48,124 nt of DNA from Candidatus Woesearchaeota archaeon (GTDB lineage: Archaea > Nanobdellota > Nanobdellia > Woesearchaeales > UBA583). Shown piece by piece: positions 6,107-26,603 of the stretch. Positions within the stretch are counted from its first letter, which is position 1. Each line of letters starts with the position of its first letter. The translations under genes were made by a program, and so were the position numbers. Location: positions 1-48,124 of the forward strand of contig JBFKKL010000001.1 of assembly GCA_041631255.1 (NCBI GenBank), written 5' to 3'. The notes below the pieces were generated by a model that had not been told where the DNA came from, made no database searches, and worked only from the letters and a program-made list of their open reading frames with translations.

Positions 6107-6115
6107 TTTAACCTA

Positions 6116-10200: not shown

Positions 10201-10790
10201 TTATTGACATTAACCCAATCAAATTTAGAAGTTGTCTGTTCTACAATTTCTGTTGTATATTCAGTAACATTAAGAGTATAGATATTAGAATCTAATGTTA
10301 GAACATCAAACAATTGAAAATCTATCACTTCGTTAATTATTAAATTTTCAGCAATAATTTCACCATCCGAAACAATACTTGTTAAATCATCACTAAAAGA
10401 ATGTAAATAATCAACATTTCTATATTCTTTAATAGAAGTTGTTGATGTAGTTTGAGTGATATTAATTTTAGAAGAAACATTTTTGAAAAGTTCAACACCT
10501 CCTTTCTCGATTTGACCTTCATAAACAAAAATAAAATCAGCAGTTAATGGATTTCCACCTTTCCATTCAAAATCAATATTTTGTTCAATATTCTGCCCAT
10601 CTATATCCTCATTATAACAATTGTGAGTAGTAATAATGAAGTTATTTTTTTCAGTAATACATTGATTAGTTGTTGAATTGTAAACTGTTGGGTCATCCAA
10701 TCCAAAAGGGTTAGCGTTAACAACAACCATTGAAAACAGTACCATTAAGAAGAACCATAATGCTTTTCCGATTTTATTTTTATTTACCAT
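7257..10790 (-). CDS. Giant surface glycoprotein (1177 aa) with a DUF2341-like domain, a poly-Gly hinge and a C-terminal membrane domain
   Basis: Signal anchor. DGGDIRFVDSTDTNELNYRIVSWNNTGESIFYVQLN...FNVYYNNS resembles DUF2341. G9 tract. Very many N-x-S/T sequons. C-terminal TM helices. Confidence 0.7.
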   Translation of the reverse strand: MVNKNKIGKALWFFLMVLFSMVVVNANPFGLDDPTVYNSTTNQCITEKNNFIITTHNCYNEDIDGQNIEQNIDFEWKGGNPLTADFIFVYEGQIEKGGVELFKNVSSKINITQTTSTTSIKEYRNVDYLHSFSDDLTSIVSDGEIIAENLIINEVIDFQLFDVLTLDSNIYTLNVTEYTTEIVEQTTSKFDWVNVNNKFNYLGNNFRGLNYDYYSAQDITLQPNKTYNVKFKFTPQNKSQNGKFHIFAKPSSTSLNNAILADQFIYQDPYWNNSWKLKRTVTVDGIQTSNENFVYRFVLNTTNFNYSYAKSDGGDIRFVDSTDTNELNYRIVSWNNTGESIFYVQLNATGGVDNTFNVYYNNSLATNNSNSSLELLTTYTNTNFTNNQTELSGGNIQLIKNETQVSNPQRSGYYMGSGTSTWWTATPEQWCQETYGTARVTHSLSSGHPFQNRYIYSSGSWSLANSDWQYTSMTCDGDYFTSGNITLTQDYVTQQDFNKFTVADNITLNGHNISGVLIYNSTEYSLSSGVVELFIPEGSNISIRYDFSGNTTTTPYMENSIDFTPTYTSQTVSSATSNIEVQNESITLLNLLNGNQTLNIAFDVVQTANQTLDYCQAKVGSTLTNGTLTGNSCSINFTTSLSSSAQTVEGYVYDTDTNYGVTAVYNLFTISTDYFDWNTTKNHTLDEQYGIFNYTITNSLSSNFTNISWSVSAVDSTKVIDVNVGSNLQSKSATVDILIEDSSFSIPSTTLQANQDYNVLKNITYNNTYAFALSPITLNFAINEYVNSDLAEYYNGSSFETLNSSVSGGNISFTLNNISASTTETYRFSYNATVVAVTIATAQSTIVGDNLEWQFNPDIQYDSNFGALSGSRTIEHSIPTSTYMPNWNTKNNWNSSGSVAHTATDNSNFLDLSFTKSSFQSETFDITYTTTVPVSVGGGGGGGGGASPTPLTVVEFDDADKDKCDITTNPIELEFNDANLFVPFTLTNRESFQIDPEFNLHFIEGDKDIFDNLQMANVVSFLGANSFTNLGVRLNTFQLNVGSATGQLIITTKKCKNVVLPIEITIVQGTTGSFTEQFEGKTLLNLFEESFDKILFMKLEKTPTNSIEKFLQKINTVGGATGVLSFITMITLLPIGNFRRFAPQQGFGVELGLRILSWAIITVVLYFVVEYARFLFN

Positions 10791-10830
10791 ATTTATTTTA
10801 CATAATTTTATTATTTAAAAAAGAGAGTTT

Positions 10831-11799
10831 TTATTTTCTCTTTTTACTTGACAATCTATTTGTTACAATAACTGTCACAATAATCAAAACAACTACAATT
10901 CCAAAGATAAGTGGCATACTACTTCCTGCCTCTTGAGATTGTTGTTCAGTTAAAACAGTAGTTGACCTATCAACTTCATCAGTTCCTTCAGTTAGATAGT
11001 TAGTAACTGAAGTTAGAGTTTGAGATTCAGATTCTTCATTTGGCGTATCTTCTTGAACATCAATAACAATTTCTTCTTCATCAGTACTATCAGAAGTTAT
11101 TCCTGTAAGAACATAATCATCAAATAATTTAGGACTTGAAGTTAAACTCCCTGTAAGAACAAATTTCAAATCAATATTTTGCCCTTCAAAATCTTCGACA
11201 GGCAAGTTTTGAGATGTGATAGGGTATTCTTCGCCATTAAAGACAACAAAAACTCCAATAGTTCCACCGTTAAGTTGACTTCTATAATCTAATCTTAAAG
11301 ATTCGTAAGAAGTATTTATTTTAATATCTTTAACAAGAACTGTACCTTGTTCAACTAAGAAATTACCTGTAGGCAATTTACAATTAACAGTTACAGCAAC
11401 ATCTTCATCGTACCCATCACTTCTCCATTTACCACCATTAAAGTAATATCTAACACCATCATCAATCTGACCGTTAGAAACAAAAGTTCCTCCGTAAGCC
11501 TGACAAAAAGTTATTCCTCCTCCTGTATAAGGATTATCATTAACATATGCACCCGAAGGCACACCTTCACTTCCACCTAAAGTCAATAATGTCTGTGAGT
11601 TACTATTCCATTGAGTATTATATTCTTTCTCTTGAAATTCTTTTTCTAAAGTATAATAATTCTGAGTTTTCTCAGCACCTTGCAATTCAACAGGATTCCC
11701 ACTAGAAATTAAGTTAAAAGATTGTGTCAATATAGCACCAACACCTAAAACCATAATTAATAAGAAGATTCCTAATTTTCTTTTATTTTTTTTGTTCAT
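10831..11799 (-). CDS. Surface protein with N-terminal signal anchor and C-terminal TM plus KKRK tail
   Basis: LGIFLLIMVLGVGAIL at the N-terminus, PLIFGIVVVLIIVTVIVTNRLSSKKRK at the C-terminus, and an acidic Ser/Thr linker. Confidence 0.65.
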   Translation of the reverse strand: MNKKNKRKLGIFLLIMVLGVGAILTQSFNLISSGNPVELQGAEKTQNYYTLEKEFQEKEYNTQWNSNSQTLLTLGGSEGVPSGAYVNDNPYTGGGITFCQAYGGTFVSNGQIDDGVRYYFNGGKWRSDGYDEDVAVTVNCKLPTGNFLVEQGTVLVKDIKINTSYESLRLDYRSQLNGGTIGVFVVFNGEEYPITSQNLPVEDFEGQNIDLKFVLTGSLTSSPKLFDDYVLTGITSDSTDEEEIVIDVQEDTPNEESESQTLTSVTNYLTEGTDEVDRSTTVLTEQQSQEAGSSMPLIFGIVVVLIIVTVIVTNRLSSKKRK

Positions 11800-11808
11800 T
11801 TTCTTTTT

Positions 11809-12267
11809 TTAAGCCTCCAATTTATTTAAACAACTTCCGAACTTGAGAACATCCCAAACAGGAATTTTCATATCAAAAGCATATTCAAGTCTATCAAATA
11901 GACCCATCGTCTTATAATTTTTTAGTAAATGTTCAACATTTTCTCTGTTAATGTTAATTGACGTATCCACATCAACACCCGAAGGTTCTTGAGTTTCTTC
12001 AATTGAGACAAGTTTATTGTCCGAAAACTTTAATACTGCATGTACTGTGTTTTCTCCTTCAGTATAACTTACTAGGATAGATTCATATTTAGATGCAATA
12101 CAAGAAGTTACAGCATAATTATTCGCTGAAACCACTATCCAATCATAGTCATAACCTAAAGAGGTTGATGAGTCATGCTTAGTGAAATCAATCACACTAA
12201 CAGCACTTACACCTGACACAAACACCATTGTTAAGATTAGCATTAAAGTTTTTCGAACAGTATCCAT
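11809..12267 (-). CDS. Secreted hypothetical protein
   Basis: N-terminal signal-like LMLILTMVFVSGVSA. Confidence 0.6.
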   Translation of the reverse strand: MDTVRKTLMLILTMVFVSGVSAVSVIDFTKHDSSTSLGYDYDWIVVSANNYAVTSCIASKYESILVSYTEGENTVHAVLKFSDNKLVSIEETQEPSGVDVDTSININRENVEHLLKNYKTMGLFDRLEYAFDMKIPVWDVLKFGSCLNKLEA

Positions 12268-12268
12268 T

Positions 12269-12580
12269 TTATTTAAACCCCAACCAAACCAATATATTTA
12301 AATGGTTTATAACAACAATTGCTGACACAATTGACACAATCACAATTGAAATTCCAATATTTCTGTACAATTCAGATTTATTTTTACTTGATTTAATAAA
12401 ATAGTACTGTGGAAAAAACGCCAACAATTCAATAACAAGTATAGACATAAATGTTTGAAGTGTGGTTGCTATTTGGTTATAGAACACATTAAATTGTAGT
12501 GCAATAACTGCAAAAACAAAATTATAGAGTACTATAACAAATGCCAATAATCCTTTTTGTTCATTAGTTTTTATTTTCAT
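12269..12580 (-). CDS. Small multi-TM membrane protein
   Basis: 103 aa, three hydrophobic segments, tightly packed in the operon. Confidence 0.6.
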   Translation of the reverse strand: MKIKTNEQKGLLAFVIVLYNFVFAVIALQFNVFYNQIATTLQTFMSILVIELLAFFPQYYFIKSSKNKSELYRNIGISIVIVSIVSAIVVINHLNILVWLGFK

Positions 12581-12861
12581 TTTCTTTTTTTACCTCCTTT
12601 AGTAGAGTTCTTTTCATCTGTCATAACGAAGATGAACAATGCTACAAGCACTCCAACTACAAACATTATTTTTGTATCAGAGACAATATAGTCAATCAAT
12701 TTAGGTAAGAAAATTATAATTGCTAGAGCAGAAGTTATAATCCACATTAGATTAGATATTTTATTTGGAAAATTGCTAATTATAATACTCTTAAAAGATA
12801 CCCATAACGATAATCCTAAAAAGATTACAAGTGCAACCCAAAGAAAAATATCTTGAATCAT
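12577..12861 (-). CDS. Small multi-TM membrane protein with a basic tail
   Basis: 94 aa, ends GGKKRK, ATGA-type overlaps on both sides. Confidence 0.6.
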   Translation of the reverse strand: MIQDIFLWVALVIFLGLSLWVSFKSIIISNFPNKISNLMWIITSALAIIIFLPKLIDYIVSDTKIMFVVGVLVALFIFVMTDEKNSTKGGKKRK

Positions 12862-14021
12862 TTTTTAGTCATCCTCCTTGCAAAGTATATCATACCTAAT
12901 CCAATAACTAATATCACAAGCCAAGAGTAATCTAAATCTTCATTTTCAGGAGCAGGTTGAACAGCACTACATTGACCTGTTGTTGTATCCCATAAAGGTT
13001 TATCACTAGGACAGGATTTCTGCACTTCAATACATTGATTAGTAACTTCAAGTTCTCCACTACTACAAGAGTATTTACATAATTGAGTTGAGTCGCCTTG
13101 AACAGGAGCATAATTTGTTATTGCACCACCAAATTCATCACAACTTTGTTTCTCAAGTTGAATTATCTTTGCATCATCACTACAACCTGTAGTTCTAGGA
13201 ATACACTCAATATTTGAACTAAACCTTTCACCTGCCGATGTATCAACAAATTTGAACCCATCTTCTGCCTCAGAAACTAAATAATAGTATTGAGGTCTAG
13301 TAATATAAATTGGTTTACCTCTTTCAACATCTTCTAAAGTAACAAGTTGATTTGAATAAGCCTGAGATAATCCTGATACAACATTCATTGGTACATTAGG
13401 TAAAATTTCAGTCCTACTTCCTGCATCAAGTGTATGGTATTTAACTTGGTTAATTGAATTAATCTCACAAGATAAAGTAGTTGGATTAACAAAACCATCT
13501 TGACTTCTAACTCTTAAACCATAAGCAGGATATTTAGCATAAAGGTCAGCATCACCAAACACTTTATCTGAATCAATGTAAATTGAATCTCCTGCATTCA
13601 CTCTAAAAACAGAACTTTCAGAACTTCCTGAAAAGAATCCTCTTTCTTTAGTACACATTGAAGAATCCAAATCGTCTTTAGTTGCATCAGTACCATCACA
13701 AATATAAGCAGTCAAAGTACCATAATTAGCAACACGATATTCACATTGTGCTCCTGAAACTAAAGGAACATAAGTTCCTGATTCACTTGAAGTACATTGA
13801 TAAAATCTTGGGTTATCAGTATGACTAGTGATTTGTTTTTCAGATAAATGTTCTGAACGAGTCACACATTCAGCAGTCCAATATTGAGGAATCCAAACAC
13901 TCTCTCCAAGCAATGAAAAAGATTGCCCACTAAAGAGACTAAAACCTTGTAACCCTCCAATTATTACCATAAACAATCCAACTAAACCTAATAAAGATAA
14001 AATTAATTTATTTTTTTTCAT
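12858..14021 (-). CDS. Cys-rich surface protein, C-terminal TM anchor
   Basis: Signal anchor, many Cys residues, C-terminal WLVILVIGLGMIYFARRMTKK. Confidence 0.65.
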   Translation of the reverse strand: MKKNKLILSLLGLVGLFMVIIGGLQGFSLFSGQSFSLLGESVWIPQYWTAECVTRSEHLSEKQITSHTDNPRFYQCTSSESGTYVPLVSGAQCEYRVANYGTLTAYICDGTDATKDDLDSSMCTKERGFFSGSSESSVFRVNAGDSIYIDSDKVFGDADLYAKYPAYGLRVRSQDGFVNPTTLSCEINSINQVKYHTLDAGSRTEILPNVPMNVVSGLSQAYSNQLVTLEDVERGKPIYITRPQYYYLVSEAEDGFKFVDTSAGERFSSNIECIPRTTGCSDDAKIIQLEKQSCDEFGGAITNYAPVQGDSTQLCKYSCSSGELEVTNQCIEVQKSCPSDKPLWDTTTGQCSAVQPAPENEDLDYSWLVILVIGLGMIYFARRMTKK

Positions 14022-15175
14022 TTTCTTCTACCCCCAATATAGATTACCATAATAACTAACATGAAAAACACTACAAGTACTTGTGGAGTATTATCTTCAA
14101 AGTAATCTGAGATACCTTGATTAGATAAAAGATTCTTGAAACTAAAATCACAATTAAAAGTTCCAACTTGTTCTTCATATGCCCTACAGAAACTTTCTTT
14201 AACAGGAGTTGTATCATCAAGTTCTTCATCAGCAACTAATGAAGTTATAGTACTTTCATCATCCCTATCTGAAACAATTTGGTCTTGAGGAGTTACTTGA
14301 TATTCACATCTACTTCTTGAATAATCCCAAGCACCTCCATTTTCCTCACAAAGTTCAGAGTTCTCTTGTCCATACTTACAAGACAAACTATCTGAGTTCC
14401 ATTGCCCTCCATTATCTTCACAAATTCTTCTTTCATCATCAAACACTTGTTCATCCGATTGAGAAGAACTTGAGGAACTTACATCTCGAGTTTCTTGAGT
14501 TAGTTCTCCTTGTTTTGCCTCTAAACAATATCTTTCTGTACCATAATCAACTCCATTCCCACCACTTTCTTCAAAATTTAAACATTCGCCATTGTATAGA
14601 TATTTTCTCTCAAATGTATCAGGAAAGATTTGAAGAGGTTCATAACAAGTATATGAATAATAAAAATCTAAACTATTAATAGGATAATTATCACTACCAA
14701 AATCTTGCCAATTTAAGTAATTTCCTTTATAGTGTACTTGCCATAATTGGTCGAATATATCAGCAATACAACTTCCTTTTTTGGAATTAGAGGAACAGAA
14801 TTTGAACCTAATCACTTCCCCCGTTTTACATTGTCCTCCTGCCTCTACATCTGAAAAAGGCACATGATGATAAACTTTAGGATTATCATATGTTTCGAAA
14901 TAGAAATTAGTTTGCACATTATCTACATCAACAAAATTCAATCCAAACAATCCTCGAGGATTAAGAATTTGTTTTCCTGTAAAAACAAACAATTCCGTAT
15001 TTGACACATAATCTTTATCAATTAGATAAGGTAAAGATTCTTCAGTAGCCACTTGAGAGCCTTTAGTAAAGAACATAAAGACTCCAACAACTAATGCAAT
15101 AATAAAGAGTCCTAATACAGTCCTCTCAATTTTTTTCCTTTTTATTTTTTGTAATGTTTTTCTTTTGACTGCCAT
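14018..15175 (-). CDS. Cys-rich surface protein with an internal C-E-x-NGG-x-W repeat, C-terminal TM anchor
   Basis: ICEDNGGQWNSDSLSCKY and LCEENGGAWDYSRSRCEY. Ser-rich linker. C-terminal VLVVFFMLVIMVIYIGGRRK. Confidence 0.65.
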   Translation of the reverse strand: MAVKRKTLQKIKRKKIERTVLGLFIIALVVGVFMFFTKGSQVATEESLPYLIDKDYVSNTELFVFTGKQILNPRGLFGLNFVDVDNVQTNFYFETYDNPKVYHHVPFSDVEAGGQCKTGEVIRFKFCSSNSKKGSCIADIFDQLWQVHYKGNYLNWQDFGSDNYPINSLDFYYSYTCYEPLQIFPDTFERKYLYNGECLNFEESGGNGVDYGTERYCLEAKQGELTQETRDVSSSSSSQSDEQVFDDERRICEDNGGQWNSDSLSCKYGQENSELCEENGGAWDYSRSRCEYQVTPQDQIVSDRDDESTITSLVADEELDDTTPVKESFCRAYEEQVGTFNCDFSFKNLLSNQGISDYFEDNTPQVLVVFFMLVIMVIYIGGRRK

Positions 15176-15185
15176 TTTTCCTTTT

Positions 15186-15737
15186 TTAGCCGAGCATATC
15201 TATCACAGGCGATTGTGAGATATTTGAAGTATTGTTTAGAGTTACATTTTCAGAAACTTGTTTAGCCCCTGAAAGCACAGAATCTGCACCACCTGAATAA
15301 TAGACAATTGCTGAAACAATCACAACCATAATAACAGTTGCCATTACTTTAACTAGTACTGAACTGTGTTCGCCTGTTCTCATATCAACAACATCGAGAA
15401 ACAATGTCACAGGTTGATACAAAACATAATAAGCACCTAGAGTAAATAATATCCCAAAAAACAAAGTACCATAATTATTTGTATTAATTGAAAAAGTTGC
15501 CAATTCAACAATAAATGTCCAAACACTAGCAAAGATAACAGCAAGACCTTCTTTATATGCAGGAATTAATGCAGTCCACCAAGATGCACCTTTTTGTCCT
15601 GCCAAATCTAAATAATAAATTAATTGTGTTATAGATAATGCAGTTATAGTAATTATCATAAAAACTATTTTCATAATTACGTTCGATGGTCTAAAGGCAT
15701 CTATTGCTGAACTGATTAATCCATTATTACTTGACAT
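15186..15737 (-). CDS. Polytopic membrane protein (183 aa from the ATG at 15737)
   Basis: The ATG at 15737 is preceded by AGAGGAG. About five TM segments. Confidence 0.6.
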   Translation of the reverse strand: MSSNNGLISSAIDAFRPSNVIMKIVFMIITITALSITQLIYYLDLAGQKGASWWTALIPAYKEGLAVIFASVWTFIVELATFSINTNNYGTLFFGILFTLGAYYVLYQPVTLFLDVVDMRTGEHSSVLVKVMATVIMVVIVSAIVYYSGGADSVLSGAKQVSENVTLNNTSNISQSPVIDMLG

Positions 15738-15738
15738 T

Positions 15739-15975
15739 TTATCTCCTCTTAGTTGCAACAGCAGTTTCTGTTGTAAATTTTTTCATATATATGGCAATAC
15801 CTGTAATTACAGCACCTGCCAAAGTAATCCATAAAGGATTCAAATTATAATATTTGGAAACTTCCAACAATCCAAAACCAAAAAGAATCGTACCTGACGC
15901 ACTTATCAAAAGCCAACCCCAAGTTTGAAACCAAGTTTGTTTTTTACCACTTCTTTTTCTATATCTATTAGCCAT
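15739..15975 (-). CDS. Small two-TM protein, first gene of the envelope operon (candidate major hydrophobic structural protein)
   Basis: 78 aa, basic N-terminus followed by two hydrophobic helices. The leaderless ATG lies about 28 nt from the TATA at 16000-16007. Confidence 0.55.
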   Translation of the reverse strand: MANRYRKRSGKKQTWFQTWGWLLISASGTILFGFGLLEVSKYYNLNPLWITLAGAVITGIAIYMKKFTTETAVATKRR

Positions 15976-16424: not shown

Positions 16425-17489
16425 ATGGCGAAAAAAAACAAATCAAACGGAATGTCAGGAGGAATGTTACTTTCAGTAGTAGTAGTTTCCGCCTTAGTAG
16501 TTCTAGCAATTCTAGGACTTACAGGACAATTCCAATCAGTAGGTACTACTGAAGAACAAAAAGCAGTTGTTGAACAACAGTTAGCAAGTATTTCTTGTCC
16601 TGACGATAAAACAACAACAGTGACATTGAATGTTCAAAATCCTCTTAACACAACAGGAGCAGAATCATTTGATGCCGAAGTTACTTTCTTAGGTGACAAC
16701 GGAGAGAAAACAACAGGTACAGATTCTACAGACGGTTCTTACAACTTAAATTGTGGTACAGTTTACGAATTAATTGTTGAATCAGCAGACGGTGCTTCAG
16801 GAGATAATGCGTTCATTAAATCAGTTCTTGAAGGAAACGGAGCAGAAGTAACAGAAGAAGGTACAATTGTTTTCGCACCAAGTCAAGCAACTTATAGACT
16901 TACAGCAAGTGTTTCACAACACGCAACTATTGAGACTAAAGTTTATGACAGAGAAGATGCAAGATTTGCATACGACTCAGGTGACGCATCAAACTCAGAA
17001 TATGAAGGAGACGCTACAACTTTCAGAGATGGAGACAATGCAACAGCGTTCGCTCTAACTAATGATGGTGACTACCTTGACTTAGAACTGAGTTTAAGAA
17101 GTGTTCAAACAGATACAGAATTTGGTGACGGAGGTTTCTTCATCGCAGTTGAAGCACCTGTAACTGAATACGATGAACCAACAGTTTCATTCAACGGAGT
17201 TACTCTAGAAGAAATTAAAGGTTCAGGTCTAAATGAATACGAATCAAAACAACTATCCAATTATGAATACGTTTACTTTGTTGACGAGAGCATCGTTAGA
17301 AAAGCCAAGACTCTTGGATTCTACATCGAAGCAAACTCAGATGCTAGTACTGACGTAGAAATTGATTTAGTTGCAATCGGTAAAGTTGACAGTATTGATG
17401 GAGTTAACATTATTACATCAAGTGCTCAAGACAACTCAGCAAGTACAACTGTTTACTCAGTAATGGACTTCACTGTAGATGTAAGTTAG
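16425..17489 (+). CDS. Abundant-looking acidic structural protein with an N-terminal TM anchor (candidate major virion/envelope protein)
   Basis: MAKKNKSNG..LLSVVVVSALVVLAILGL anchor. Codon usage is visibly biased (GGT/GAA/GAC/ACT/GTT). It has its own promoter and its own hairpin plus T-tract terminator. Confidence 0.6.
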   Translation: MAKKNKSNGMSGGMLLSVVVVSALVVLAILGLTGQFQSVGTTEEQKAVVEQQLASISCPDDKTTTVTLNVQNPLNTTGAESFDAEVTFLGDNGEKTTGTDSTDGSYNLNCGTVYELIVESADGASGDNAFIKSVLEGNGAEVTEEGTIVFAPSQATYRLTASVSQHATIETKVYDREDARFAYDSGDASNSEYEGDATTFRDGDNATAFALTNDGDYLDLELSLRSVQTDTEFGDGGFFIAVEAPVTEYDEPTVSFNGVTLEEIKGSGLNEYESKQLSNYEYVYFVDESIVRKAKTLGFYIEANSDASTDVEIDLVAIGKVDSIDGVNIITSSAQDNSASTTVYSVMDFTVDVS

Positions 17490-17516
17490 AGTTTATCTCT
17501 AACTCTTTTACCTTTT
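17484..17516 (+). terminator. Hairpin (AGTTAGAG/CTCTAACT) followed by two T4 tracts
   Basis: 8-bp stem overlapping the stop codon, then TTTT at 17506-17509 and 17513-17516. Confidence 0.55.
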
Positions 17517-17596
17517 CAAAATTTAATTTAATAATAGGGTGAATGAAAATTCAATTTAAGGTTTGATTCCTTAACACTCTGCTCCTCAAAGAAAAA

Positions 17597-17779
17597 ATGG
17601 TCTCAAAAAAAGAAAACAGATTAAATATAGGTCTAGCATCTTTCTTCTTCTTAATGAGTATTGTCTTATTTTTAGACGCTTATAGAAGTACGGAAGTTAT
17701 GATTCAATTCATTAAAGGAATCTCAGGAACAATCGGCTTAGCATTAGGTTGGTTATTCAGTATGAAGGTGAAATTATAA
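17597..17779 (+). CDS. Small two-TM protein
   Basis: 60 aa, with hydrophobic segments IGLASFFFLMSIVLFL and ISGTIGLALGWLF. Confidence 0.55.
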   Translation: MVSKKENRLNIGLASFFFLMSIVLFLDAYRSTEVMIQFIKGISGTIGLALGWLFSMKVKL

Positions 17780-17780
17780 A

Positions 17781-18869
17781 ATGGCAAGAACCACAGTATC
17801 AAAACATAAAAGAACAGTTAATGGAAAAACTGTTGATGTAGTGCAACATTCAAGAAAAGTTGAAAAGGTTGAACCTAAAAGTAAAAGTCCAATTAAAGAA
17901 GTAAGCAAATTCCCAAAAGAATTCAAAAGATATGTTTCATTTGTAGATAAAGAAGGAAAGAATGTTAAAGTTGAAATTGAGTATAAATTATTAAGAGGAA
18001 ATAGTGCACCTTATTTCGCCATAACTAGGGAAAGGGCAGGAAGTTCAGGAGCAGGAGGTTGGATTCCTAAAAACGAAGAACAACAAATCCTCTTAGACTT
18101 CCAAGATAAATATCATTTGAAATCTGATATACCAAAAGATTTAGAATTAAGAATTGATTCATTAATCAGATTAATTGAAGATGCCGAAGAAAACACTCAA
18201 GATGATTTAGGGCTTAGTGGTTGGATGCTAGAAGCCATGAAGGAATTAGCAGAAGACCAAGACGAAGTTTTCACCGAAGCAAACGAAATAAGTTCTACAG
18301 AATTTGAAGTTGAAGGAGCAAACAGATACAGAGTATTTGCATCTTATGATGATGCAAAGACAACAGCAATTGATGAACTTGAAGAGCAAGTTGAAGACGA
18401 CCCTGAAAATTTTCTAAATGATTTTTTCTTAGGATATATTGATACAAATAGGGCAGAAAATTTTTTCACAGATATTTACAATGAACAAAATTATGGATAT
18501 GCAGAAGATATTCAATCAGAAGGAAGTTCTCAAGGATACGAGAATAGATTGGTTGACGAATTATTAGAAAGAAATATTATCACAGAAGACCAAGCAGAAG
18601 AAGAAGACTTTGATGGGTCAGATTTCATTGATGAATTTGTAGAAGAAATGACAAACGATAGTATTAATGAAGGAAGAGGAGGATACGATTATTACGAATC
18701 AAACTTCGGAGAAGAAGAAGCGAAAACCTTAGCGAAAGATAATGGATTAATTGACATTAGGTCAGCATCAGAAAATGCAGTAAACATAGATGGAGTAGGA
18801 CATTTCCTTGCAGGATATGATGGAGCAGACATAGAATTACCAAGTGGAGCATACGCATTCAAAAACTAG
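17781..18869 (+). CDS. Protein with the shared basic N-terminal module and a very acidic C-terminal region, paralog 2
   Basis: KHKRTVNGKTVDVVQHSRKVEKVEPKSKSP at the N-terminus. D/E-rich C-terminal half (EDQAEEEDFDGSDFIDEFVEEM). Confidence 0.65.
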   Translation: MARTTVSKHKRTVNGKTVDVVQHSRKVEKVEPKSKSPIKEVSKFPKEFKRYVSFVDKEGKNVKVEIEYKLLRGNSAPYFAITRERAGSSGAGGWIPKNEEQQILLDFQDKYHLKSDIPKDLELRIDSLIRLIEDAEENTQDDLGLSGWMLEAMKELAEDQDEVFTEANEISSTEFEVEGANRYRVFASYDDAKTTAIDELEEQVEDDPENFLNDFFLGYIDTNRAENFFTDIYNEQNYGYAEDIQSEGSSQGYENRLVDELLERNIITEDQAEEEDFDGSDFIDEFVEEMTNDSINEGRGGYDYYESNFGEEEAKTLAKDNGLIDIRSASENAVNIDGVGHFLAGYDGADIELPSGAYAFKN

Positions 18870-18873
18870 GAAA

Positions 18874-19173
18874 ATGAAACGAACAATAAGAATCAAACCA
18901 TATCAAAGGAGCAAAGGAACTATCAAAGTTAAAGGACATATGAGAACTATCGAAACAAAAAATGTTTCTCCAACATCCAAAGCACCAATAAATAGAAAAA
19001 AATATTATGTCCAAGAAAATATTGGTAAAGTAAAATATGCTTTAAGTTTTCACGATGGCAAAAAGAAAAATCGTGATGGAAGTCCATTCTATGACCTTAG
19101 AACATTTAAGAATAAAAAAGATTTAGAAAATGAGATTAACAAACTAAAATCTCAAGGTTATATGGAGAGGTAA
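18874..19173 (+). CDS. Protein with the shared basic N-terminal module, paralog 3
   Basis: MKRTIRIKPYQRSKGTIKVKGHMRTIETKNVSPTSKAP. The ATG at 18874 follows the upstream TAG. Confidence 0.6.
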   Translation: MKRTIRIKPYQRSKGTIKVKGHMRTIETKNVSPTSKAPINRKKYYVQENIGKVKYALSFHDGKKKNRDGSPFYDLRTFKNKKDLENEINKLKSQGYMER

Positions 19174-19186
19174 GAGGAAATAAAAA

Positions 19187-19372
19187 ATGAAACAAGCAAC
19201 AAAAAAAAGAATTAACAGAATAGCATATGGATTTGGAATAACAATAGTGGTTGTAAGTCACATATACTTACTTATGACAGGAAGTTTACCTGAAGATATG
19301 GTTAAAGACCATGCAATAATTAATCTAGTAGCAGGAGGAGCACTAGCATACAGTTGGTTCACTAAAAAATAA
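19187..19372 (+). CDS. Small two-TM protein
   Basis: 61 aa, two hydrophobic helices. Confidence 0.55.
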   Translation: MKQATKKRINRIAYGFGITIVVVSHIYLLMTGSLPEDMVKDHAIINLVAGGALAYSWFTKK

Positions 19373-19374
19373 AA

Positions 19375-19665
19375 ATGGCACAAACTAAATTCAATATAAA
19401 AAGGTACATTGGAACATACTTCATATTTAATGTATTGAATTTAATTGCTCTAACTATTGGAGGGATTTTAATAACATTATTATTCTTTTGGGCTAATTTA
19501 CCTGACATTGTATTAATGATATTATCTGCTTTAATCTCTCTTAGTTTAATGTATTGGCTAGTTGAAAGAATGAAATTGAATTTTCTATATTTCTTTGTAT
19601 TCAACATAGTGTTTTCAATAGCATTGATATTATTAATAGCATTCTTATTCGCATTGGTGATTTAA
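19375..19665 (+). CDS. Small multi-TM protein
   Basis: 96 aa, three hydrophobic segments. Confidence 0.55.
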   Translation: MAQTKFNIKRYIGTYFIFNVLNLIALTIGGILITLLFFWANLPDIVLMILSALISLSLMYWLVERMKLNFLYFFVFNIVFSIALILLIAFLFALVI

Positions 19666-19666
19666 A

Positions 19667-20599
19667 ATGGCAAGAAAAATAATCCAACAACAAAATGTAA
19701 ATTCATTCGCAATCATTCTATTAATGATTATGATTTTAGGAGTGGGTTTTGGTTGGATGGTAGGTCTTCAAGCAGGACAATTATATGGTATTCTTTTCAC
19801 AACTACATTTGCAACATTTTTCATTGTATTTTCATTAGTAGATGAAACGAATAAACAGACATTAAGAAATTTCTATAAAACTCCTTTATATTCTTCAACA
19901 CCTGCAAGTATAGGTATGTTCCTTTTAGGTTGGATTGCAATTGCCATTATCAACTTTTTAGGTAGTCTAGGTAATTTCTTCGGATTACAAAACTTTTCAA
20001 CAACACAAGTATTTGGTGACTTGTATTTTTCAGGAGGGGGCAGACTATCAGAAGGAATCTCTCAAACATTTCAGGCAGGGATTTTGGAATCATCAAAATT
20101 AACTGAGTTTTATTACAGTTGCATTGTAGCACCAATTCAAGAGGAATGGACATTCGCAATTGTTCTTCCTCTTTTAGGTTACATGTTCGCAATAGGGATA
20201 AGACAATTATTTGGAAAAACTTTACCGTTTGGAATTAAAGATAAAACATTTCTTTGGTTCATAACAATTGTTTTATCGATAGGTGCTTTTATGTACATAC
20301 ATAAATTAAATGCATCTTATGTAGGGATAATGTTCATTATTGCAGGACTATTCAGGTTAGCAATTAATGTGTTAATTTACTTTTACGGTCTAGCATTAAG
20401 TTTCGGTATTGGAGCACACATGGCAAACAACACAACAGCATGGGTTAACGCAAACGGATTTGGAACTTTAATTTCAACTCTAGTAACAAGCGTGTTCGGT
20501 TGGTTGTTTTTAGGTTTGTTCTTGTGGCTTATAATTTACTCTATAAGAAACTTTGGCGATGTTGTTAAAGGGATTAGCGAGGAATTAAGTAACAGGTAA
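19667..20599 (+). CDS. CPBP-family (CAAX/Abi-like) intramembrane protease
   Basis: Polytopic. The three family motifs appear in order: IQEEWTF (EExxx), FMYIH (FxxxH), HMANN (HxxxN). Confidence 0.6.
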   Translation: MARKIIQQQNVNSFAIILLMIMILGVGFGWMVGLQAGQLYGILFTTTFATFFIVFSLVDETNKQTLRNFYKTPLYSSTPASIGMFLLGWIAIAIINFLGSLGNFFGLQNFSTTQVFGDLYFSGGGRLSEGISQTFQAGILESSKLTEFYYSCIVAPIQEEWTFAIVLPLLGYMFAIGIRQLFGKTLPFGIKDKTFLWFITIVLSIGAFMYIHKLNASYVGIMFIIAGLFRLAINVLIYFYGLALSFGIGAHMANNTTAWVNANGFGTLISTLVTSVFGWLFLGLFLWLIIYSIRNFGDVVKGISEELSNR

Positions 20600-20605
20600 C
20601 GCCCA

Positions 20606-23600
20606 ATGAAAAAAGTACTAATACTAACAATATTAACTCTCTTCTTACCAAGTTTAGTTTTTAGTGCGTTCAATGGAGACGATGATGGATTCCACAGTAA
20701 TGCAGTTGTAACTGAAGGTTCAACAGTTTGCGATTTCGATTTCGAAGATTACAATAACGCAGGAGACGATGCAAATTACGGTTCATTCGATGACCCTGAC
20801 GATACGGGCACAGTTAGAACTCCTTTACAATTTTGGGTATCAAGGACATCAACAATTACTGTAACCTCAACATGTGAATATACAATTTATGAAACGGAGA
20901 CTTGTTCAGGAGCAACAATTCACACAGGTTCAAATACAGGAGGAACAGGAACTTACACAGTTAATATCGCACCAAGCAATTTTGCAGGACATCAAGGTGA
21001 ATTATGTTTATGCGTTAAAGCAATCAATGACCCAGCACTTGGAGACCCAACGGAGAACGAAGAATGCGGTCAAATCGGAATTGCACCTTACATAACTTCA
21101 TTAAATGTAACTGAAAGTACAGTAAATTTATTCCAAAATCAAACTTTAAATTATTCAATTGATGACACGAACGATATTGAAAGACTAGATTGGAAGATAC
21201 TTAGAGTATCAGATAACTCAACAATTAAATCAACATTAAGAGACACAAATCTTTCAGGATTAGTTCAAGAACAACAAATTAATTTTTCAACTAATCCGAT
21301 TTTAGATACAACCCATAAATATTCTGCATTAGGTTGGAGAGATGATAGTGAGAACCATACAAGATTTTCAACAAACTCAGTTAATTTATCAAACGAGTAC
21401 AATATTACAGGCACACTATTTTGTGAAGATTTCACAGACAATTTAGGATTAGGAATTTACAATAAAGGTGAACAGTTGAATTTATCGGGAACAATTGACG
21501 ATTGGAATCAAACAGACTATACAGTAACAACGGGCGTTGGTTACCAAATACAGTACAGAGTAGCAAGTCAAGAAACGAACGAGTTCACATCAACTACAAC
21601 AGACGTAAATTCAACAGGAGGTTGGAACAGAGTTACAACCATTTCAGATTCAGCAGAAGCCACAAACACTTTCACAGGAACTTCTTATGATATAACATTT
21701 CAAATTGACGCAGACGTAGATTCAACAGAGAACATGACTTGTACTTATTCAGGAGTAACTGACATCTCTTCCTTAATTCAATTATCTACAACTCCAAGCG
21801 TACCCACTGCCGATAACAAATATTCAACTAATTATTCAATCTATAATTACGGTGAGACAGCAAATATTTGGGGATACTTATTCAACGTAAGAAATGAGAC
21901 ATATTCTAATCAAGCGAATATGACACTTTTAGTTTTAAATTCCACAAACGCAACTGAAGAGACAGTAAACATTTCAACTAACGGTTCAGGTTATTTCGAG
22001 ACCTCTTATAACATAGTTTCTCCTGACACGTCAACGAACGATAAAACAGGTAGTCCAAAACATATCCAAATAACACCTAATAACGGGAACTCAGAAATCA
22101 ATTCATCAAGTAATCATAGCGTATCATCTTTAATAGAATTGGATTCAAACACTTGTTCAGCATCCAACAACAATTTATTCAATACAACATACAATATTTA
22201 CAATTATGGAGAGACAGTAAACTTTTGGGGATATTTATGTAATGTAAGGGGCGAACCGTACAGTTCAGAATCTAGTTTGAACGTATTAGTTTTAAATTCC
22301 ACAAACGCAACAGAAGAGAACATAACTTTTTCAACTGACTCAAACGGTTTCTTCAATGAAACTTACAACACAACATCACCTGATACAGCAACAAATGATT
22401 TCATAGGAAGTCCAAAACATTTAAGGATAACTCCTAACGATGACAATTCACAATTCGATTCAGCAAACGGGCATTCACTATCAACTTTAATCCAATTATC
22501 TACGAACACCTGTTCAGCATCCAACAATAATTTATATTCAACTAATTATTCAATTTACAATTACGGTGAGACAGTAAACATTGAAGGATATTTATGTAAT
22601 GTAAGAAATGAAAGTTACGCAAGTCAATCAGGTATGACATTAAAAGTATTAAGTAACACAAACACAACAGAAGAGACAAAAACGATTTCAACTAACGGTT
22701 CAGGTTATTTTGAAACAACATATACTCCCGCATCGCCCGATTTAGCAACAACAGATTATGTTGGTAGTCCAAAACATATCCAAGTAACTCCTAATGATAA
22801 TAATGGAATTTTAAATTCATCAAGTAATCACAGCATATCAACTTTAATTAGTATCTCAGATAAAGCATGTAATGTAGAAATCAATAATAAATTCAATACA
22901 ACATACAATATTTACAATTACGGAGAGACAGTAAACTTTTGGGGATATTTATGTAATGTAAGAAATGAAAGTTACGCAAGTCAATCCTCTTTAACATTCA
23001 AAGTTCATGCAGACAATGAGAGTGTAGAAGAAACAATCTCAACAGCAAGTACTGACTCAAACGGTTTCTTCAATGAATCTTATGTACCTGATTCAACAGA
23101 TAAAGCAACAAATGATTTCATAGGAAGTCCAAAACATTTAGAGATTACATCCAATGACGATAACAGTATATTCGAAAGTGATTCTTCATTTAATTTAAGT
23201 TCATTACTTAACGCAACAATATGGATTTCCAAATCATCAAGCACCCAAACAATTCCAACAGATGAGATTGCAACACAATTCATTATTGCAGGAGATTCAG
23301 TTTATGCGTGGGTAAAAACTTTAGGAGTTAGAGGAGACAACATTTCATCAGTTACAGTCGATACAAAAACAGTTAGAGGTGCAACAACAGAAGAAACTAA
23401 TAATGGCTTAATAACTAAAGCGAACGCATGGACAAATAGAACTTCGTTCAATCCTGTTGTTCCTGCGGGTCAAAGAGATTTAGTTGCAAACGGAACTGAC
23501 AGTTCAAGTAATTTCTTTTCAGTAAATGAGACAATAGAATATATCCCTGCTTATACAGCAAATAGAATAAGTGTACCATTCATAAGAAAGATTTCAGGTG

Positions 23601-26311
23601 ACGGGATAGGCAACAACTTTGTTTCAGGTTCAGTTCTAAGAATCTACGTTGACTATTTTGTTGATGCACAATTACAAGACACTTTAAACAACCAATCAAC
23701 AGTTACGATTCGTAACTCAACTAATGACATCATGTTAAATGCAACCAACATGACAAGACATTCTTTAGGTAAATATTATTACGATTGGGATACAACGGGC
23801 AAGAACCCTGACTCATACCATTTCTTACTTTTCGGTAAGAACTTAGATACAGTAGATTCTTATTCAAGTGCTTTTGTAATTATAACAAACGAAACTGCAA
23901 TCACATCTTTACCTGTAACCAATAATAATGTTTCAACATCTTCTCCATATGTAAGAAAGATTTCAGGCGATGGTATTGGTAACAATTTCAAGAACGGCTC
24001 AATATTAAGAATTTATTCAGATTTCGCAGTGAATGGAACATTAACAAACACTTCTGAAACTCCTACTATAACATTAAAGAACTCAACAGATAATATAGTT
24101 TTAAATTCTCTTAACATGACATATTTATCAACAGGTAAATATTATTACGATTGGAACACAACAGGAATAAATCAAGACACTTATCACGCCATAACTCAAG
24201 GTAATGTAGGTAACAAGAACACTTACGGAAATGTTTGGTTTGTTGTAACTAATGAAACTCCAACAACTGAATCAATAAACAACAATATAACAACAATAAA
24301 TCCTTACATTAAGAAACTTTCAGGCGATGGCATAGGTAATAACTTCAAGAACGGTTCAGTTCTAAGAATTTACGGAGATTATTTAGTTAATGAGACTTTG
24401 ACTGAACCTTTGAGTAATCTCTCTAAATTGACGATTAGAGATTCAACAAACAATATAATCTTAAATGAAGTTAACATGACAAGAGATAATCAAGGAATTT
24501 ATTATTATGATTGGAATACTCAGAACGAGACTCAAGATACATATTACTTATTAATTGATGGAACAGTTGGGGGTAAAAGAACATTTGGAAGTTCTTGGTT
24601 TATTATAACAAACGAGACAGCAGTAACATCAATCCCTCAAGAAGATGAAAGAACAATCACACCTTACGTTAAAAAACAATCAGGACAAGGTATTGGAAAT
24701 AATTTCGTTAACGGTTCAAGTTTAAGATTATATTCAGATTTCCTATTAAACGGTCAATTAACAAACACATCTGATACACCAACAGTTACAATTCGTAACT
24801 CAACTAACGATATAATCCTGAATGCAACTAATATGACTTTCCATTCAACAGGTAAATATTATTACGATTGGGATACAACAAATGTGAGCCCTGATTCCTA
24901 TTTAGTTATTTATGAAGGAGATTTAAATTCCAATACAACTTATTCGAGTGCATGGTTCATTATAACAAACGAGACAGCAGTAACATCAATCCCTACAACA
25001 AACACTACAACAGTTTCACCTTACATTAAGAAAATATCAGGTGCAGGTATTGACAATAATTTCAAGAACGGTTCAGTTCTAAGACTTTACACAGACTATT
25101 TTGTTAACGGAGCATTAACTGACCCGACAAACAATCAATCAACAGTTACAATTCGTAACTCAACAAACAGCATCATAGTTAACAGTGCTAATATGACAAG
25201 ACATTCAACAGGTAAATATTATTACGATTGGAACACGTCAGGGATTGACCCTGACTCATATTTAGCAATTTATCAAAGTACACTTAGCGGTAACTTAACT
25301 TACGGAAGCACTTGGTTCGTACTAACAAATGAGTCATTAGATAGTTTTTCTGAGAGAATCGCATTAGCAACAGAGATTGGTGCAGGTGCAAAAGTAAAAA
25401 ACAATTTAAACAATTCAGAATATTTCAATAACGAGAACGTAATCACTAAAAGAATAAGTGAAACAGCGTTAATGAAATTCAATATCACTTTCTTAAAAGT
25501 TCCTGATAATGGCGATGATTATAAAGTTAGATATGAGTTTTACGCTAGAAACGGTTCAGGAGAGATTGTTGAATCGATTGAAACAACAGTTCAAGGAACG
25601 ACAGGTAACAAGGACATATATTTTGGGAGCAACAATTTATCTCCTAACGGATTACAGGAAACTTATTTAGTTAAAACAATAGTTAGTATGCAAAACGAGA
25701 ATGGATTATATTTAGAATTTAATGAAACAATTATTGGTTCAATCACAGTTGATAGTTCAAATAGTGTAACGGAAGGAGACACAGTAGGTAGGGCAGGACT
25801 CTACGATGTAATAGTTGAAGTTGATAGACATAAATACGAACCTTCAGACATAGTTAAGGCAGAAATAGTCATCTTCAATACAGGAGACATACCTGATGAG
25901 GACACAGTCTTAATTTATTGGTTAGAAAAGAATGGTGAAAGATATGGAGAAGTGAAAGAACAGTTCTTAGAAATTCCTGTAGGTAAAACTTTCCTTAATA
26001 AAGCAATCGCCTTACCTTCCGATTCAGAACTTGGTGAATGGCGTTTCGTTGCAGAATATTATACAGTTGTTCAACCTAAAATCAAGGTTTACGATTCATT
26101 TGAAGTTGTAGAAGATGTCGCTTTACTTGACGATTTCCAAGAAGAATTAAAGAATTTAGTTTTAATACCTGCAACATTTATTACTGATTCAATTCCCGAA
26201 TTTGTTAAATCACAAAGATTAGTTAGTAGAGATTTTGTTTATGTATGCATTGGAATCTTATTTAGTATCTGCTTATTCATATTCTTCGTGAAAAGGAGGA
26301 AGAGAAAGTAA
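20606..26311 (+). CDS. Giant tandem-repeat surface adhesin-like glycoprotein (1901 aa), C-terminal TM plus KRRKRK
   Basis: Signal peptide. Four A-type and five B-type repeats of about 119 aa. Extremely sequon-rich. C-terminal FVYVCIGILFSICLFIFFVKRRKRK. Confidence 0.8.
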   Translation: MKKVLILTILTLFLPSLVFSAFNGDDDGFHSNAVVTEGSTVCDFDFEDYNNAGDDANYGSFDDPDDTGTVRTPLQFWVSRTSTITVTSTCEYTIYETETCSGATIHTGSNTGGTGTYTVNIAPSNFAGHQGELCLCVKAINDPALGDPTENEECGQIGIAPYITSLNVTESTVNLFQNQTLNYSIDDTNDIERLDWKILRVSDNSTIKSTLRDTNLSGLVQEQQINFSTNPILDTTHKYSALGWRDDSENHTRFSTNSVNLSNEYNITGTLFCEDFTDNLGLGIYNKGEQLNLSGTIDDWNQTDYTVTTGVGYQIQYRVASQETNEFTSTTTDVNSTGGWNRVTTISDSAEATNTFTGTSYDITFQIDADVDSTENMTCTYSGVTDISSLIQLSTTPSVPTADNKYSTNYSIYNYGETANIWGYLFNVRNETYSNQANMTLLVLNSTNATEETVNISTNGSGYFETSYNIVSPDTSTNDKTGSPKHIQITPNNGNSEINSSSNHSVSSLIELDSNTCSASNNNLFNTTYNIYNYGETVNFWGYLCNVRGEPYSSESSLNVLVLNSTNATEENITFSTDSNGFFNETYNTTSPDTATNDFIGSPKHLRITPNDDNSQFDSANGHSLSTLIQLSTNTCSASNNNLYSTNYSIYNYGETVNIEGYLCNVRNESYASQSGMTLKVLSNTNTTEETKTISTNGSGYFETTYTPASPDLATTDYVGSPKHIQVTPNDNNGILNSSSNHSISTLISISDKACNVEINNKFNTTYNIYNYGETVNFWGYLCNVRNESYASQSSLTFKVHADNESVEETISTASTDSNGFFNESYVPDSTDKATNDFIGSPKHLEITSNDDNSIFESDSSFNLSSLLNATIWISKSSSTQTIPTDEIATQFIIAGDSVYAWVKTLGVRGDNISSVTVDTKTVRGATTEETNNGLITKANAWTNRTSFNPVVPAGQRDLVANGTDSSSNFFSVNETIEYIPAYTANRISVPFIRKISGDGIGNNFVSGSVLRIYVDYFVDAQLQDTLNNQSTVTIRNSTNDIMLNATNMTRHSLGKYYYDWDTTGKNPDSYHFLLFGKNLDTVDSYSSAFVIITNETAITSLPVTNNNVSTSSPYVRKISGDGIGNNFKNGSILRIYSDFAVNGTLTNTSETPTITLKNSTDNIVLNSLNMTYLSTGKYYYDWNTTGINQDTYHAITQGNVGNKNTYGNVWFVVTNETPTTESINNNITTINPYIKKLSGDGIGNNFKNGSVLRIYGDYLVNETLTEPLSNLSKLTIRDSTNNIILNEVNMTRDNQGIYYYDWNTQNETQDTYYLLIDGTVGGKRTFGSSWFIITNETAVTSIPQEDERTITPYVKKQSGQGIGNNFVNGSSLRLYSDFLLNGQLTNTSDTPTVTIRNSTNDIILNATNMTFHSTGKYYYDWDTTNVSPDSYLVIYEGDLNSNTTYSSAWFIITNETAVTSIPTTNTTTVSPYIKKISGAGIDNNFKNGSVLRLYTDYFVNGALTDPTNNQSTVTIRNSTNSIIVNSANMTRHSTGKYYYDWNTSGIDPDSYLAIYQSTLSGNLTYGSTWFVLTNESLDSFSERIALATEIGAGAKVKNNLNNSEYFNNENVITKRISETALMKFNITFLKVPDNGDDYKVRYEFYARNGSGEIVESIETTVQGTTGNKDIYFGSNNLSPNGLQETYLVKTIVSMQNENGLYLEFNETIIGSITVDSSNSVTEGDTVGRAGLYDVIVEVDRHKYEPSDIVKAEIVIFNTGDIPDEDTVLIYWLEKNGERYGEVKEQFLEIPVGKTFLNKAIALPSDSELGEWRFVAEYYTVVQPKIKVYDSFEVVEDVALLDDFQEELKNLVLIPATFITDSIPEFVKSQRLVSRDFVYVCIGILFSICLFIFFVKRRKRK
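21770..23210 (+). repeat. Intragenic repeat family A (4 x about 357 nt, ABAB pattern with a 714-nt higher-order period)
   Basis: IYNYGETVN.WGYLCNVR...GSPKH recurs. Copies 1/3 and 2/4 share long near-identical nucleotide runs at an offset of 714 nt. Confidence 0.85.
23565..25345 (+). repeat. Intragenic repeat family B (5 x about 357 nt)
   Basis: PY(I/V)KK.SG.GIGNNF.NGS.LR.Y...GKYYYDW.T...ITNETAVTSIP recurs. AACGAGACAGCAGTAACATCAATCCCT occurs at 24611 and 24968. Confidence 0.85.
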
Positions 26312-26312
26312 A

Positions 26313-26603
26313 ATGAACAACAAAGCAGAAATAAGCCCTGTAGTAGCAACAGCATTACTTCTTGTAGTTGCAGTAACTCTAGTAGTTGGATTTCAAGCAT
26401 GGTACAACACATTAAAATATGGAGAAGGACAACCAAGAATAGGAGACTTAATATTGAATACAACAATAGAGGGTGACATCTACAAATGTTTTTATCATGA
26501 TAAAGGGAGTATGAGATGTGAAATAAAGGAATGTTTCAAAATAGAGAATACAACATTTTGTGAGCAAAGTTATGAGAACAAATATTTCACTTTCCCAAAA
26601 TGA
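26313..26603 (+). CDS. Archaeal type IV pilin-like protein (class III signal peptide, DUF1628-like N-terminus)
   Basis: MNNKAEISPVVATALLLVVAVTLVVGF matches the archaeal pilin/archaellin N-terminal pattern. Cys-rich C-terminus. Confidence 0.6.
   Translation: MNNKAEISPVVATALLLVVAVTLVVGFQAWYNTLKYGEGQPRIGDLILNTTIEGDIYKCFYHDKGSMRCEIKECFKIENTTFCEQSYENKYFTFPK

Follow-up and report, generated by a model that had tools for sequence, protein, structure and literature searches.

A predicted 1901-residue surface glycoprotein with old, conserved repeat arrays, encoded by a circular, integrase-bearing element binned with a woesearchaeal genome

The 48,124-nucleotide (nt) contig JBFKKL010000001.1 of a Candidatus Woesearchaeota archaeon (assembly GCA_041631255.1), the whole of which is hereinafter called the window, encodes on its forward strand (20606-26311) a type I membrane protein of 1901 amino acids (aa) with two arrays of tandem repeats, A and B. 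Probably, although by no means certainly, this protein is a Sec-exported, membrane-anchored, heavily N-glycosylated fibrillar adhesin or spike that is borne by an integrase-carrying circle of 47,983 bp. The two ends of the window overlap directly and exactly over 141 nt (1-141 versus 47984-48124), and the contig therefore represents a closed circle. In an earlier analysis based on the letters alone (the sequence-only reading), the gene was described as coding for an adhesin-like glycoprotein with two repeat families, the near-identical DNA of which would imply recent duplication and offer a ready substrate for recombination. The first part of this description holds: a signal peptide, a transmembrane (TM) anchor, an excess of glycosylation sequons, an STT3/AglB homologue in the same genomic bin and all-beta models of both repeat units together point to a protein that is probably adhesin-like, surface-exposed and N-glycosylated. 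The second part does not, because the repeat units are strongly diverged at the DNA level.

The gene is a single open reading frame (ORF), as the sequence-only reading had it, with no competing ORF of at least 80 aa within its limits. The mature product has a mass of approximately 208 kDa and an isoelectric point (pI) of 4.4. At its hydrophobic N-terminus, the precursor has a Sec-type signal peptide (aa 1-20, MKKVLILTILTLFLPSLVFSA; 20606-20665), the design of which is nearly identical in a 1123-aa relative, P0037. The signal peptide is followed by a head module (aa 21-281; 20666-21448) that contains 7 cysteines and the motifs GSFDDPDDTGT.RTP, IGIAPYIT and RFSTNS; two relatives retain it at 33-35% identity, P0037 in one copy and P0052 in two, and it has no match in Pfam, NCBIfam or the PDB. 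Next come a degenerate A-like unit, A0 (aa 282-388; 21449-21769), which is weakly matched by the A profile over aa 282-365 (E-value 0.03), and the family A array proper (21770-23197). This array comprises four 119-aa units, A1 (21770-22126), A2 (22127-22483), A3 (22484-22840) and A4 (22841-23197), with the signature YNYGETVN...GSPKH. A linker domain denoted X (aa 865-985, FIIAGDSVYAWVKTLGVRGD...GWT...P.G; 23198-23560) leads to the family B array (23561-25360), which consists of five units of approximately 119-123 aa with the signature SGDGIGNNF...NMT...GKYYYDW...ITNET. The remainder of the protein includes a region without a family match that contains 5 sequons (aa 1586-1736; 25361-25813), a charged, sequon-free membrane-proximal domain of the MG2/CARDB-like type (aa 1737-1820; 25814-26065), an acidic juxtamembrane segment that also lacks sequons (aa 1821-1876; 26066-26233) and, as previously recognized, a TM helix (aa 1877-1895, FVYVCIGILFSICLFIFFV) with a cytoplasmic KRRKRK tail (26234-26308). 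Units A2, A3 and A4 each contain a pair of cysteines 28 residues apart (aa 517/545, 636/664 and 755/783, respectively), and A1 contains none; judging by this distribution, the pairs may form an intradomain disulfide that was gained after the first duplication.

The sequence composition makes N-glycosylation plausible. The protein contains 85 N-x-S/T sequons, about 6-7 per unit, in agreement with the earlier statement that every repeat carries several; shuffling of its residues yielded 47.7 +/- 5.5 sequons, with a maximum of 72 in 5000 shuffles. The resulting density, 4.5 sequons per 100 aa, is roughly 7 times that of the ORFs in the rest of the bin (0.65). All five B units have two of the sequons in common, four of the five also have two further ones, and the last 195 residues of the protein are charged and contain none. 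The bin also encodes the STT3/AglB homologue, which belongs to a family confined to archaeal genomes among the controls, and a prepilin peptidase.

With the units anchored on YNYGET (A) and GIGNNF/YYYDW (B), the A profile matches each of the A units with E-values of 1e-62 to 1e-65 and the B profile matches the B units at about 1e-60, which bears out the four A and five B copies of the sequence-only reading along with their positions and periods; the start-to-start spacing of the B units is 369, 357, 360 and 357 nt. The supposed near-identity of the repeat DNA, however, is contradicted. Pairwise identity between units is 62-72% (A) and 61-69% (B) at the nucleotide level and 45-66% at the amino acid level, and Tandem Repeats Finder detects only B4/B5, with 75% matches. 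The longest exact repeat within the gene, of 44 nt, is shared by A3 and A4 (22586-22629 and again 22943-22986, forward strand) at an offset of 357, whereas the long runs described at an offset of exactly 714 are just 16-41 nt in length at 714/717; altogether, approximately 17 direct repeats match exactly and in register over 20-44 nt at unit offsets. By the Nei-Gojobori method, the synonymous divergence (dS) of every unit pair falls between 0.93 and 2.76 and the ratio of nonsynonymous to synonymous divergence (dN/dS) between 0.18 and 0.43. Synonymous sites are near or past saturation, and the arrays are therefore old and subject to purifying selection, so that recent duplication is not supported.

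On a finer scale, a sliding comparison of the A units reveals a mosaic of 45-90-nt stretches with 84-98% identity, along which the closest partner changes from A2-A3 at the start to A2-A4 and A1-A3 and then to A3-A4. A site-shuffle test on variable sites was significant (p <=0.003) for 5 of the 6 A pairs and for some B pairs; the significantly long concordant tracts in the 5 A pairs span approximately 15-40 nt and switch partners. The mosaic suggests short-tract gene conversion over an old background. Gene conversion, which had been proposed for this gene, is thus retained in the form of short tracts but not in that of highly identical DNA. Similarly, the ABAB pattern proposed for the A array is reflected in the most similar pairs, A1/A3 (66% aa identity) and A2/A4 (63%), but the unit tree, (A1,(A3,(A2,A4))), supports the grouping of A2 with A4 and does not recover the alternation.

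Structure prediction for one unit of each family, a check suggested with the sequence-only reading, yielded all-beta sandwiches in both cases. For family A, the Pfam profile MG2 (PF01835) matches the whole protein with 57.8 bits (E-value 1.4e-15; gathering cut-off 32.8), a total that is the sum of weak stretches in every A unit and in the C-terminal domain at aa 1737-1820, the best single stretch; single units score 13.9-18.2 bits, each below the cut-off when taken alone. The AlphaFold2 model of the A unit, built from an alignment of 8 sequences, is all-beta with a mean predicted local distance difference test score (pLDDT) of 63.6, and its best Foldseek matches in the PDB, weak as they are (best E-value 1.3e-3, TM-score about 0.5), are the macroglobulin (MG) domains of the E. 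coli, Salmonella and human alpha-2-macroglobulins and of C3. Because profile and fold are two independent lines of evidence, the A units can be regarded, with modest confidence, as MG2-like beta-sandwiches. The model of the B unit (pLDDT 67.9) is a seven-strand sandwich with only generic Ig/Fn3 matches, and by this model the B units are Ig-like. A profile-profile comparison found A and B to be unrelated (hhalign probability 0.1%), which led to rejection of the idea that both diverged from a single family. Sequence and profile searches of the PDB with the whole protein, the head, A and B found nothing at E <0.1, and NCBIfam gave no match. Stand-alone B-like proteins of approximately 95-105 aa are encoded in metagenomes (P0036, P0044 and P0046).

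When 1.84 billion representative proteins were searched exhaustively with HMMER, with aa 389-1585 as the query, 45 relatives at 26-34% identity were retrieved, nearly all of which match the A units and X; the few B-type matches are mainly to short proteins. About 45 metagenomic proteins share the A signature YN.GE...D.AT.D..GSPKH. The named sources are a Thermoplasmatota metagenome-assembled genome (MAG; P0003, MDD5501929.1) and Candidatus Kaiserbacteria, represented by P0047 (MCA9363759.1), a named member of the P0004 cluster that is annotated as an SH3 domain-containing protein; other relatives come from a genome of the same order and from metagenome contigs. The order head-A-X-B-anchor is common to P0037, P0018, P0003 and P0004, with differing unit numbers. 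P0037 is collinear with the giant protein from residue 1 and shows the same signal-peptide design, head, A-like units and X, with one B-like unit, and P0018 (1610 aa) has one A unit together with X, several B-like units that are diverged, and a TM anchor. X is kept after the A units in relatives: it aligns with P0037 and P0018, and its motif is also found in P0002, P0003 and P0004. In P0052 (1181 aa; L013 10001-13546), the head, with 33% identity, is present twice (approximately aa 26-300 and 500-860), which shows that duplication in this family is not confined to A and B. A further group of relatives, of approximately 750-1300 aa, starts with MAVYKG and lacks a signal peptide and a TM helix. 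Relatives of approximately 720-900 aa (P0008, P0009, P0012, P0013, P0015, P0020, P0021, P0023, P0025 and P0028), most of which start with MAVYKG or MAVWRG, likewise lack both; in these, a conserved N-terminal part of approximately 280 aa precedes A0 and the A units. A PHROGs scan of seven members (P0008, P0009, P0012, P0013, P0020, P0023 and P0025) gave no match.

A tree computed for 80 A units places the four of this protein in a single clade (support 99/91, present in 100% of bootstrap trees), and several other proteins of the family likewise have clades of their own A units, with the A0-type first units forming one orthologous clade across proteins; the grouping of the five B units is less well supported (70/87). 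The arrays therefore either expanded independently in each lineage or were homogenised within lineages. The comparison of the gene across related contigs, also suggested earlier, shows that among distant relatives the number of A units per protein ranges from 1 to about 6. The differing numbers and the clustering of units by protein imply expansion and contraction on evolutionary time, which by these sequence comparisons is a timescale far longer than population turnover.

The family is rare. No match to the A or B profile was found in 19 genomes of the same genus; in 41 other genomes of the same order, A was not detected and B gave two matches (G034 and G035) that vanish under the HMMER composition-bias filter on full proteins and are treated as marginal. 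In a sample of the phylum, 3 of 400 genomes contain an A match. Word-indexed searches of 5.8 billion proteins recovered nothing besides P0052 and the protein itself, and a pattern scan of a 185,579-species genome set revealed no confirmed relative with the patterns used. There was no tblastn match to A plus X, B, the head or the 61-aa protein encoded upstream (see below) among 50,697 phage records (INPHARED), nor to A plus X among 72,556 plasmids (PLSDB), and none of the IMG/VR, phage, plasmid, genome and metagenome collections searched yielded a close relative.

The genomic contexts that were compared cover P0052, P0018 (in genome G336) and the loci L014-L016. P0018 has a chromosomal context, its gene being located on a 324-kb contig from a same-order genome that is 99% complete. 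Approximately 1.5 kb from it lies an ORF (L028 6621-7544, G336:C9) whose N-terminus, MKPTVLDLFAGCGGFSHGF, by eye resembles a C-5 cytosine DNA methyltransferase motif. The neighbourhood of P0018 may be a genomic island. At L014, a contig from the JGI, a 1365-aa protein combines two A units with collagen repeats in a chromosomal context that includes genes for a class I tRNA synthetase, a transketolase, a pyruvate kinase and a YcaO protein; from a neighbour with an SH3 domain, this contig might be guessed to be bacterial and possibly to belong to the candidate phyla radiation (CPR). P0052 resides on a 23.7-kb contig that carries an integrase and an HNH gene and is otherwise unrelated to the element described here.

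Taken together, these features suggest how the giant protein could work. The ectodomain would be a string of approximately 15 consecutive domains (head, A0, four A units, X, five B units, the region at aa 1586-1736 and the MG2/CARDB-like domain) that, if extended, would form a stalk of about 50 nm. Such a stalk would hold the cysteine-containing head off the membrane and allow it to bind the surface of a partner; the surface that carries the fibre could be that of a cell or of a particle. Both arrays would have arisen by tandem duplication in their own lineage and then diverged under purifying selection with occasional short conversion tracts, and their role would be structural, in providing length, rigidity and a glycan shield, rather than in rapid switching of sequence or size.

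Bacterial repeat adhesins, such as Bap, Esp, Aap-SasG, SiiE, intimin/invasin and the Rib/alpha-C proteins, are secreted, anchored proteins in which a stalk of beta-sandwiches presents a distal binding module; the number of repeats differs between relatives, and many have DNA repeats of >90% identity with copy-number polymorphism at the strain level. The giant protein has the general architecture of such adhesins, namely an export signal, an anchor, nine clear sandwich units in addition to A0, X and the C-terminal MG2-like domain, and a conserved head, and resembles the Bap, SiiE and invasin types in being very long and anchored, with a tandem beta-sandwich stalk of varying unit number. In contrast, it does not belong with the hypervariable-repeat adhesins of the Bap, Aap and Rib kind, because at 61-72% nucleotide identity, with saturated synonymous sites, its repeats are too dissimilar in DNA for that group. 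Further differences from the bacterial proteins are its anchor, a TM helix with a basic tail instead of an LPXTG motif or an outer-membrane barrel, and its domains, which belong to uncurated families. SPEARE of Ca. Nanohaloarchaeum antarcticus is reportedly a giant DPANN surface protein with protease and nuclease domains and a proposed role at the cell-cell interface, the latter a point of resemblance to the present protein; unlike in SPEARE, Pfam detects no protease or nuclease domains here.

Several observations weigh against interpreting the gene product as a glycosylated adhesin of this archaeon. The reversed sequon motif occurs 62 times in the protein, so part of the sequon excess reflects local richness in N, S and T. 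The unit models are of moderate confidence (pLDDT 64-68), with weak fold matches (best E-value 1.3e-3), and the site-shuffle test for conversion tracts ignores local differences in constraint. The adhesin label itself derives from the architecture, and the head has no recognisable binding fold. Finally, the element is assigned to its MAG by binning and composition only. The bin is a small, low-GC archaeal genome (943 kb in 202 contigs, 86% complete), and the GC content (31.2% in the element versus 29.9% in the bin) and tetranucleotide usage (r ~0.95) are similar, but this match is not independent evidence of the host because binning selects for composition.

Apart from the giant gene, the element encodes a tyrosine integrase (3249-3938), a tRNA-Met, a HerA-type ATPase, an HNH nuclease and a polymer-synthase-like glycosyltransferase of family 2 (GT2). 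Its ATPases are of the HerA/FtsK type, the best PDB matches of the HerA-type one being HerA helicases. Two divergent operons, 3965-15758 (reverse strand) and 16425-26603 (forward strand), code for five type I membrane proteins (1177, 322, 387, 385 and 1901 aa) and many small multi-TM proteins. The 1177-aa protein is the second sequon-rich one (3.5 sequons per 100 aa); it was considered as a paralogue of the 1901-aa protein and rejected, the two being unrelated on comparison. The giant gene lies within a tightly packed part of the forward operon, as indicated by the gaps on both sides: it is preceded by genes for a 61-aa protein predicted to form a two-helix hairpin (19187-19372), a 96-aa multi-TM protein (19375-19665) and a 310-aa multi-TM protein (19667-20599), the last of which ends 6 nt before the giant gene, and it is followed, 1 nt after its stop codon, by a gene for another 96-aa protein (26313-26603, N-terminus KAEISPVVATALLLVVAVTLVVGF), all on the forward strand.

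To the eye, KAEISPVVATALLLVVAVTLVVGF resembles an archaeal class III (pilin-type) signal; Pfam gives for this protein only a sub-threshold match to Flp1_like (E-value 0.086), and neither a pilin label here nor a CPBP-protease label for the 310-aa protein is supported by Pfam or NCBIfam at E <=0.01. The KRRKRK codons of the giant gene (26291-26313, aaaaggaggaagagaaag) contain AGGAGG approximately 12 nt upstream of the next ATG and may, by this spacing, double as the ribosome-binding site of the downstream gene. Small TM proteins precede both the giant gene and P0052, the latter on its unrelated integrase-bearing contig. By analogy, such small hydrophobic proteins and a giant protein may form a conserved module reminiscent of the capsid and adhesin genes of spindle-shaped viruses.

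A possible, although doubtful, alternative is that the element is a virus, for example of a spindle-shaped or a pleomorphic enveloped type, and that the giant protein is a virion component, a receptor-binding terminal fibre or spike that enters the host membrane and is acquired at budding or assembly. Nanohaloarchaeota's putative spindle-shaped viruses, DNSV-1 and DNSV-2, have genomes of approximately 21-22 kb that encode a tyrosine integrase, hairpin capsid proteins and, in a gene >1900 codons long, a proposed receptor-binding adhesin with a glycoside-hydrolase domain (10.1101/2025.02.15.638363). Compared by description, they share with the present element a gene of about 1900 codons, an integrase-bearing circle, an archaeon of the DPANN type and a small hairpin protein encoded nearby, and the terminal-fibre protein of fuselloviruses can be grouped with the DNSV adhesins in this comparison; the precedent is a lead and not a test. 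The virion interpretation is also compatible with the circular form and the integrase in an element in which no hallmark of plasmid replication or conjugation was recognised, with the hairpin and other small hydrophobic proteins encoded directly upstream and the four small TM ORFs directly upstream of P0052 (L013 8423-9997), and with the weak match of the B-type domain (B3, 24287-24643) to phrog_18294, a phage family of approximately 100-aa proteins of no assigned function. However, no capsid, portal, terminase or AAA+ morphogenesis hallmark, including the spindle-virus capsid and AAA+ ATPase, was recognised on the element; a PHROGs scan of its ten large proteins gave zero matches; no similarity between the hairpin protein and known capsid proteins was detectable; and scans of IMG/VR for relatives of the A units, the B units, a 354-aa protein and the HerA-like ATPase were empty, as was the search of the phage records. 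Furthermore, unlike in DNSV, no glycoside-hydrolase domain was detected, the 48-kb element is about twice as large, and the homologues P0018 and the L014 protein reside in chromosomal contexts.

It is unlikely that the protein instead forms a protective coat, that is, an S-layer-like glycoprotein canopy or a factor that excludes superinfecting elements or mating partners, as opposed to a specific adhesin. Archaeal S-layer and other surface glycoproteins, for example csg of Haloferax volcanii (PDB 7ptp), resemble it in the combination of a signal peptide, strings of Ig-like domains, a C-terminal anchor and dense sequons, to which the pI of 4.4 can be added; the S-layer structures 7ptp and 8c8k are among the weak fold matches, and the element has, in addition, its GT2 polymer-synthase-like gene and genes for four further type I membrane proteins. 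Unlike S-layer genes, however, the giant gene belongs to a mobile element, was not detected in the 19 genomes of the genus and is seldom matched in the phylum sample, the protein has no PGF-CTERM or archaeosortase signal, and the string of some 15 domains, with its distinct and conserved head, suggests a fibre and not a lattice subunit.

Quite unlikely, too, is the scenario implied by the sequence-only reading, in which the arrays expand, contract or shuffle within populations and so, with no reverse transcriptase involved, vary a host-recognition protein in a cassette-like manner. Its ingredients are partly present: the short in-register direct repeats, the partner-switching tracts, the variable unit number with clustering of units by protein and the lack of a Pfam match to a reverse transcriptase among the scanned element ORFs of about 190 aa or more. 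The low identity and high dS of the units nevertheless imply that the last whole-unit duplication or homogenisation was ancient, and dN/dS signals conservation and not diversification. The short-read assembly crossed the arrays without collapse, which is to be expected because no repeat exceeds the word length of the assembler, the longest intragenic repeat being 44 nt and the terminal overlap 141 nt. The 90% identity cluster of the protein has a single member from a single contig, so no variant is on record. As for silent donor cassettes, which a diversity-generating system would be expected to use, the A and B profiles match nothing else in the 943-kb MAG, and blastn gave no match between the element and the remainder of the MAG.

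That the protein is a surface-displayed, alpha-2-macroglobulin-like protease trap is extremely improbable: MG2 scores above the cut-off and the A units and the membrane-proximal domain resemble the MG domains of alpha-2-macroglobulin and C3 (PDB 4ziq, 5a42, 4u4j and 2p9r), but only the MG-like sandwiches are shared, the A units have a signature of their own, and neither the C[GLA]EQ (CGEQ) thioester motif, the absence of which led us to reject this function, nor thioester/TED, A2M, CUB or receptor-binding domains or a bait region were found in the protein.

Ultra-small archaea and CPR bacteria live attached to other cells, and the molecules responsible for the attachment are mostly unknown. 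As a Sec-exported, anchored fibrillar adhesin or spike, the product of the gene described here would be a concrete candidate for such a molecule, a glycoprotein fibre of approximately 208 kDa with a conserved head that is borne by a mobile element. The analysis also defines two uncurated families of extracellular domains, one MG2-like (YN.GE...GSPKH) and one Ig-like (GKYYYDW), both of which recur in rare, large surface proteins of both prokaryotic domains of life. Given that the arrays are old and conserved, the interest of the system lies in the binding partner of the head and in the nature of the carrier, virus or plasmid, and not in rapid variation. A bolder and rather improbable conjecture is that the protein is the receptor-binding fibre of a previously undescribed, virus-like DPANN element of approximately 48 kb and that its architecture represents a cross-domain attachment module passed among ultra-small episymbionts by mobile elements. 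If that were true, the element could re-target which partner cell is bound.

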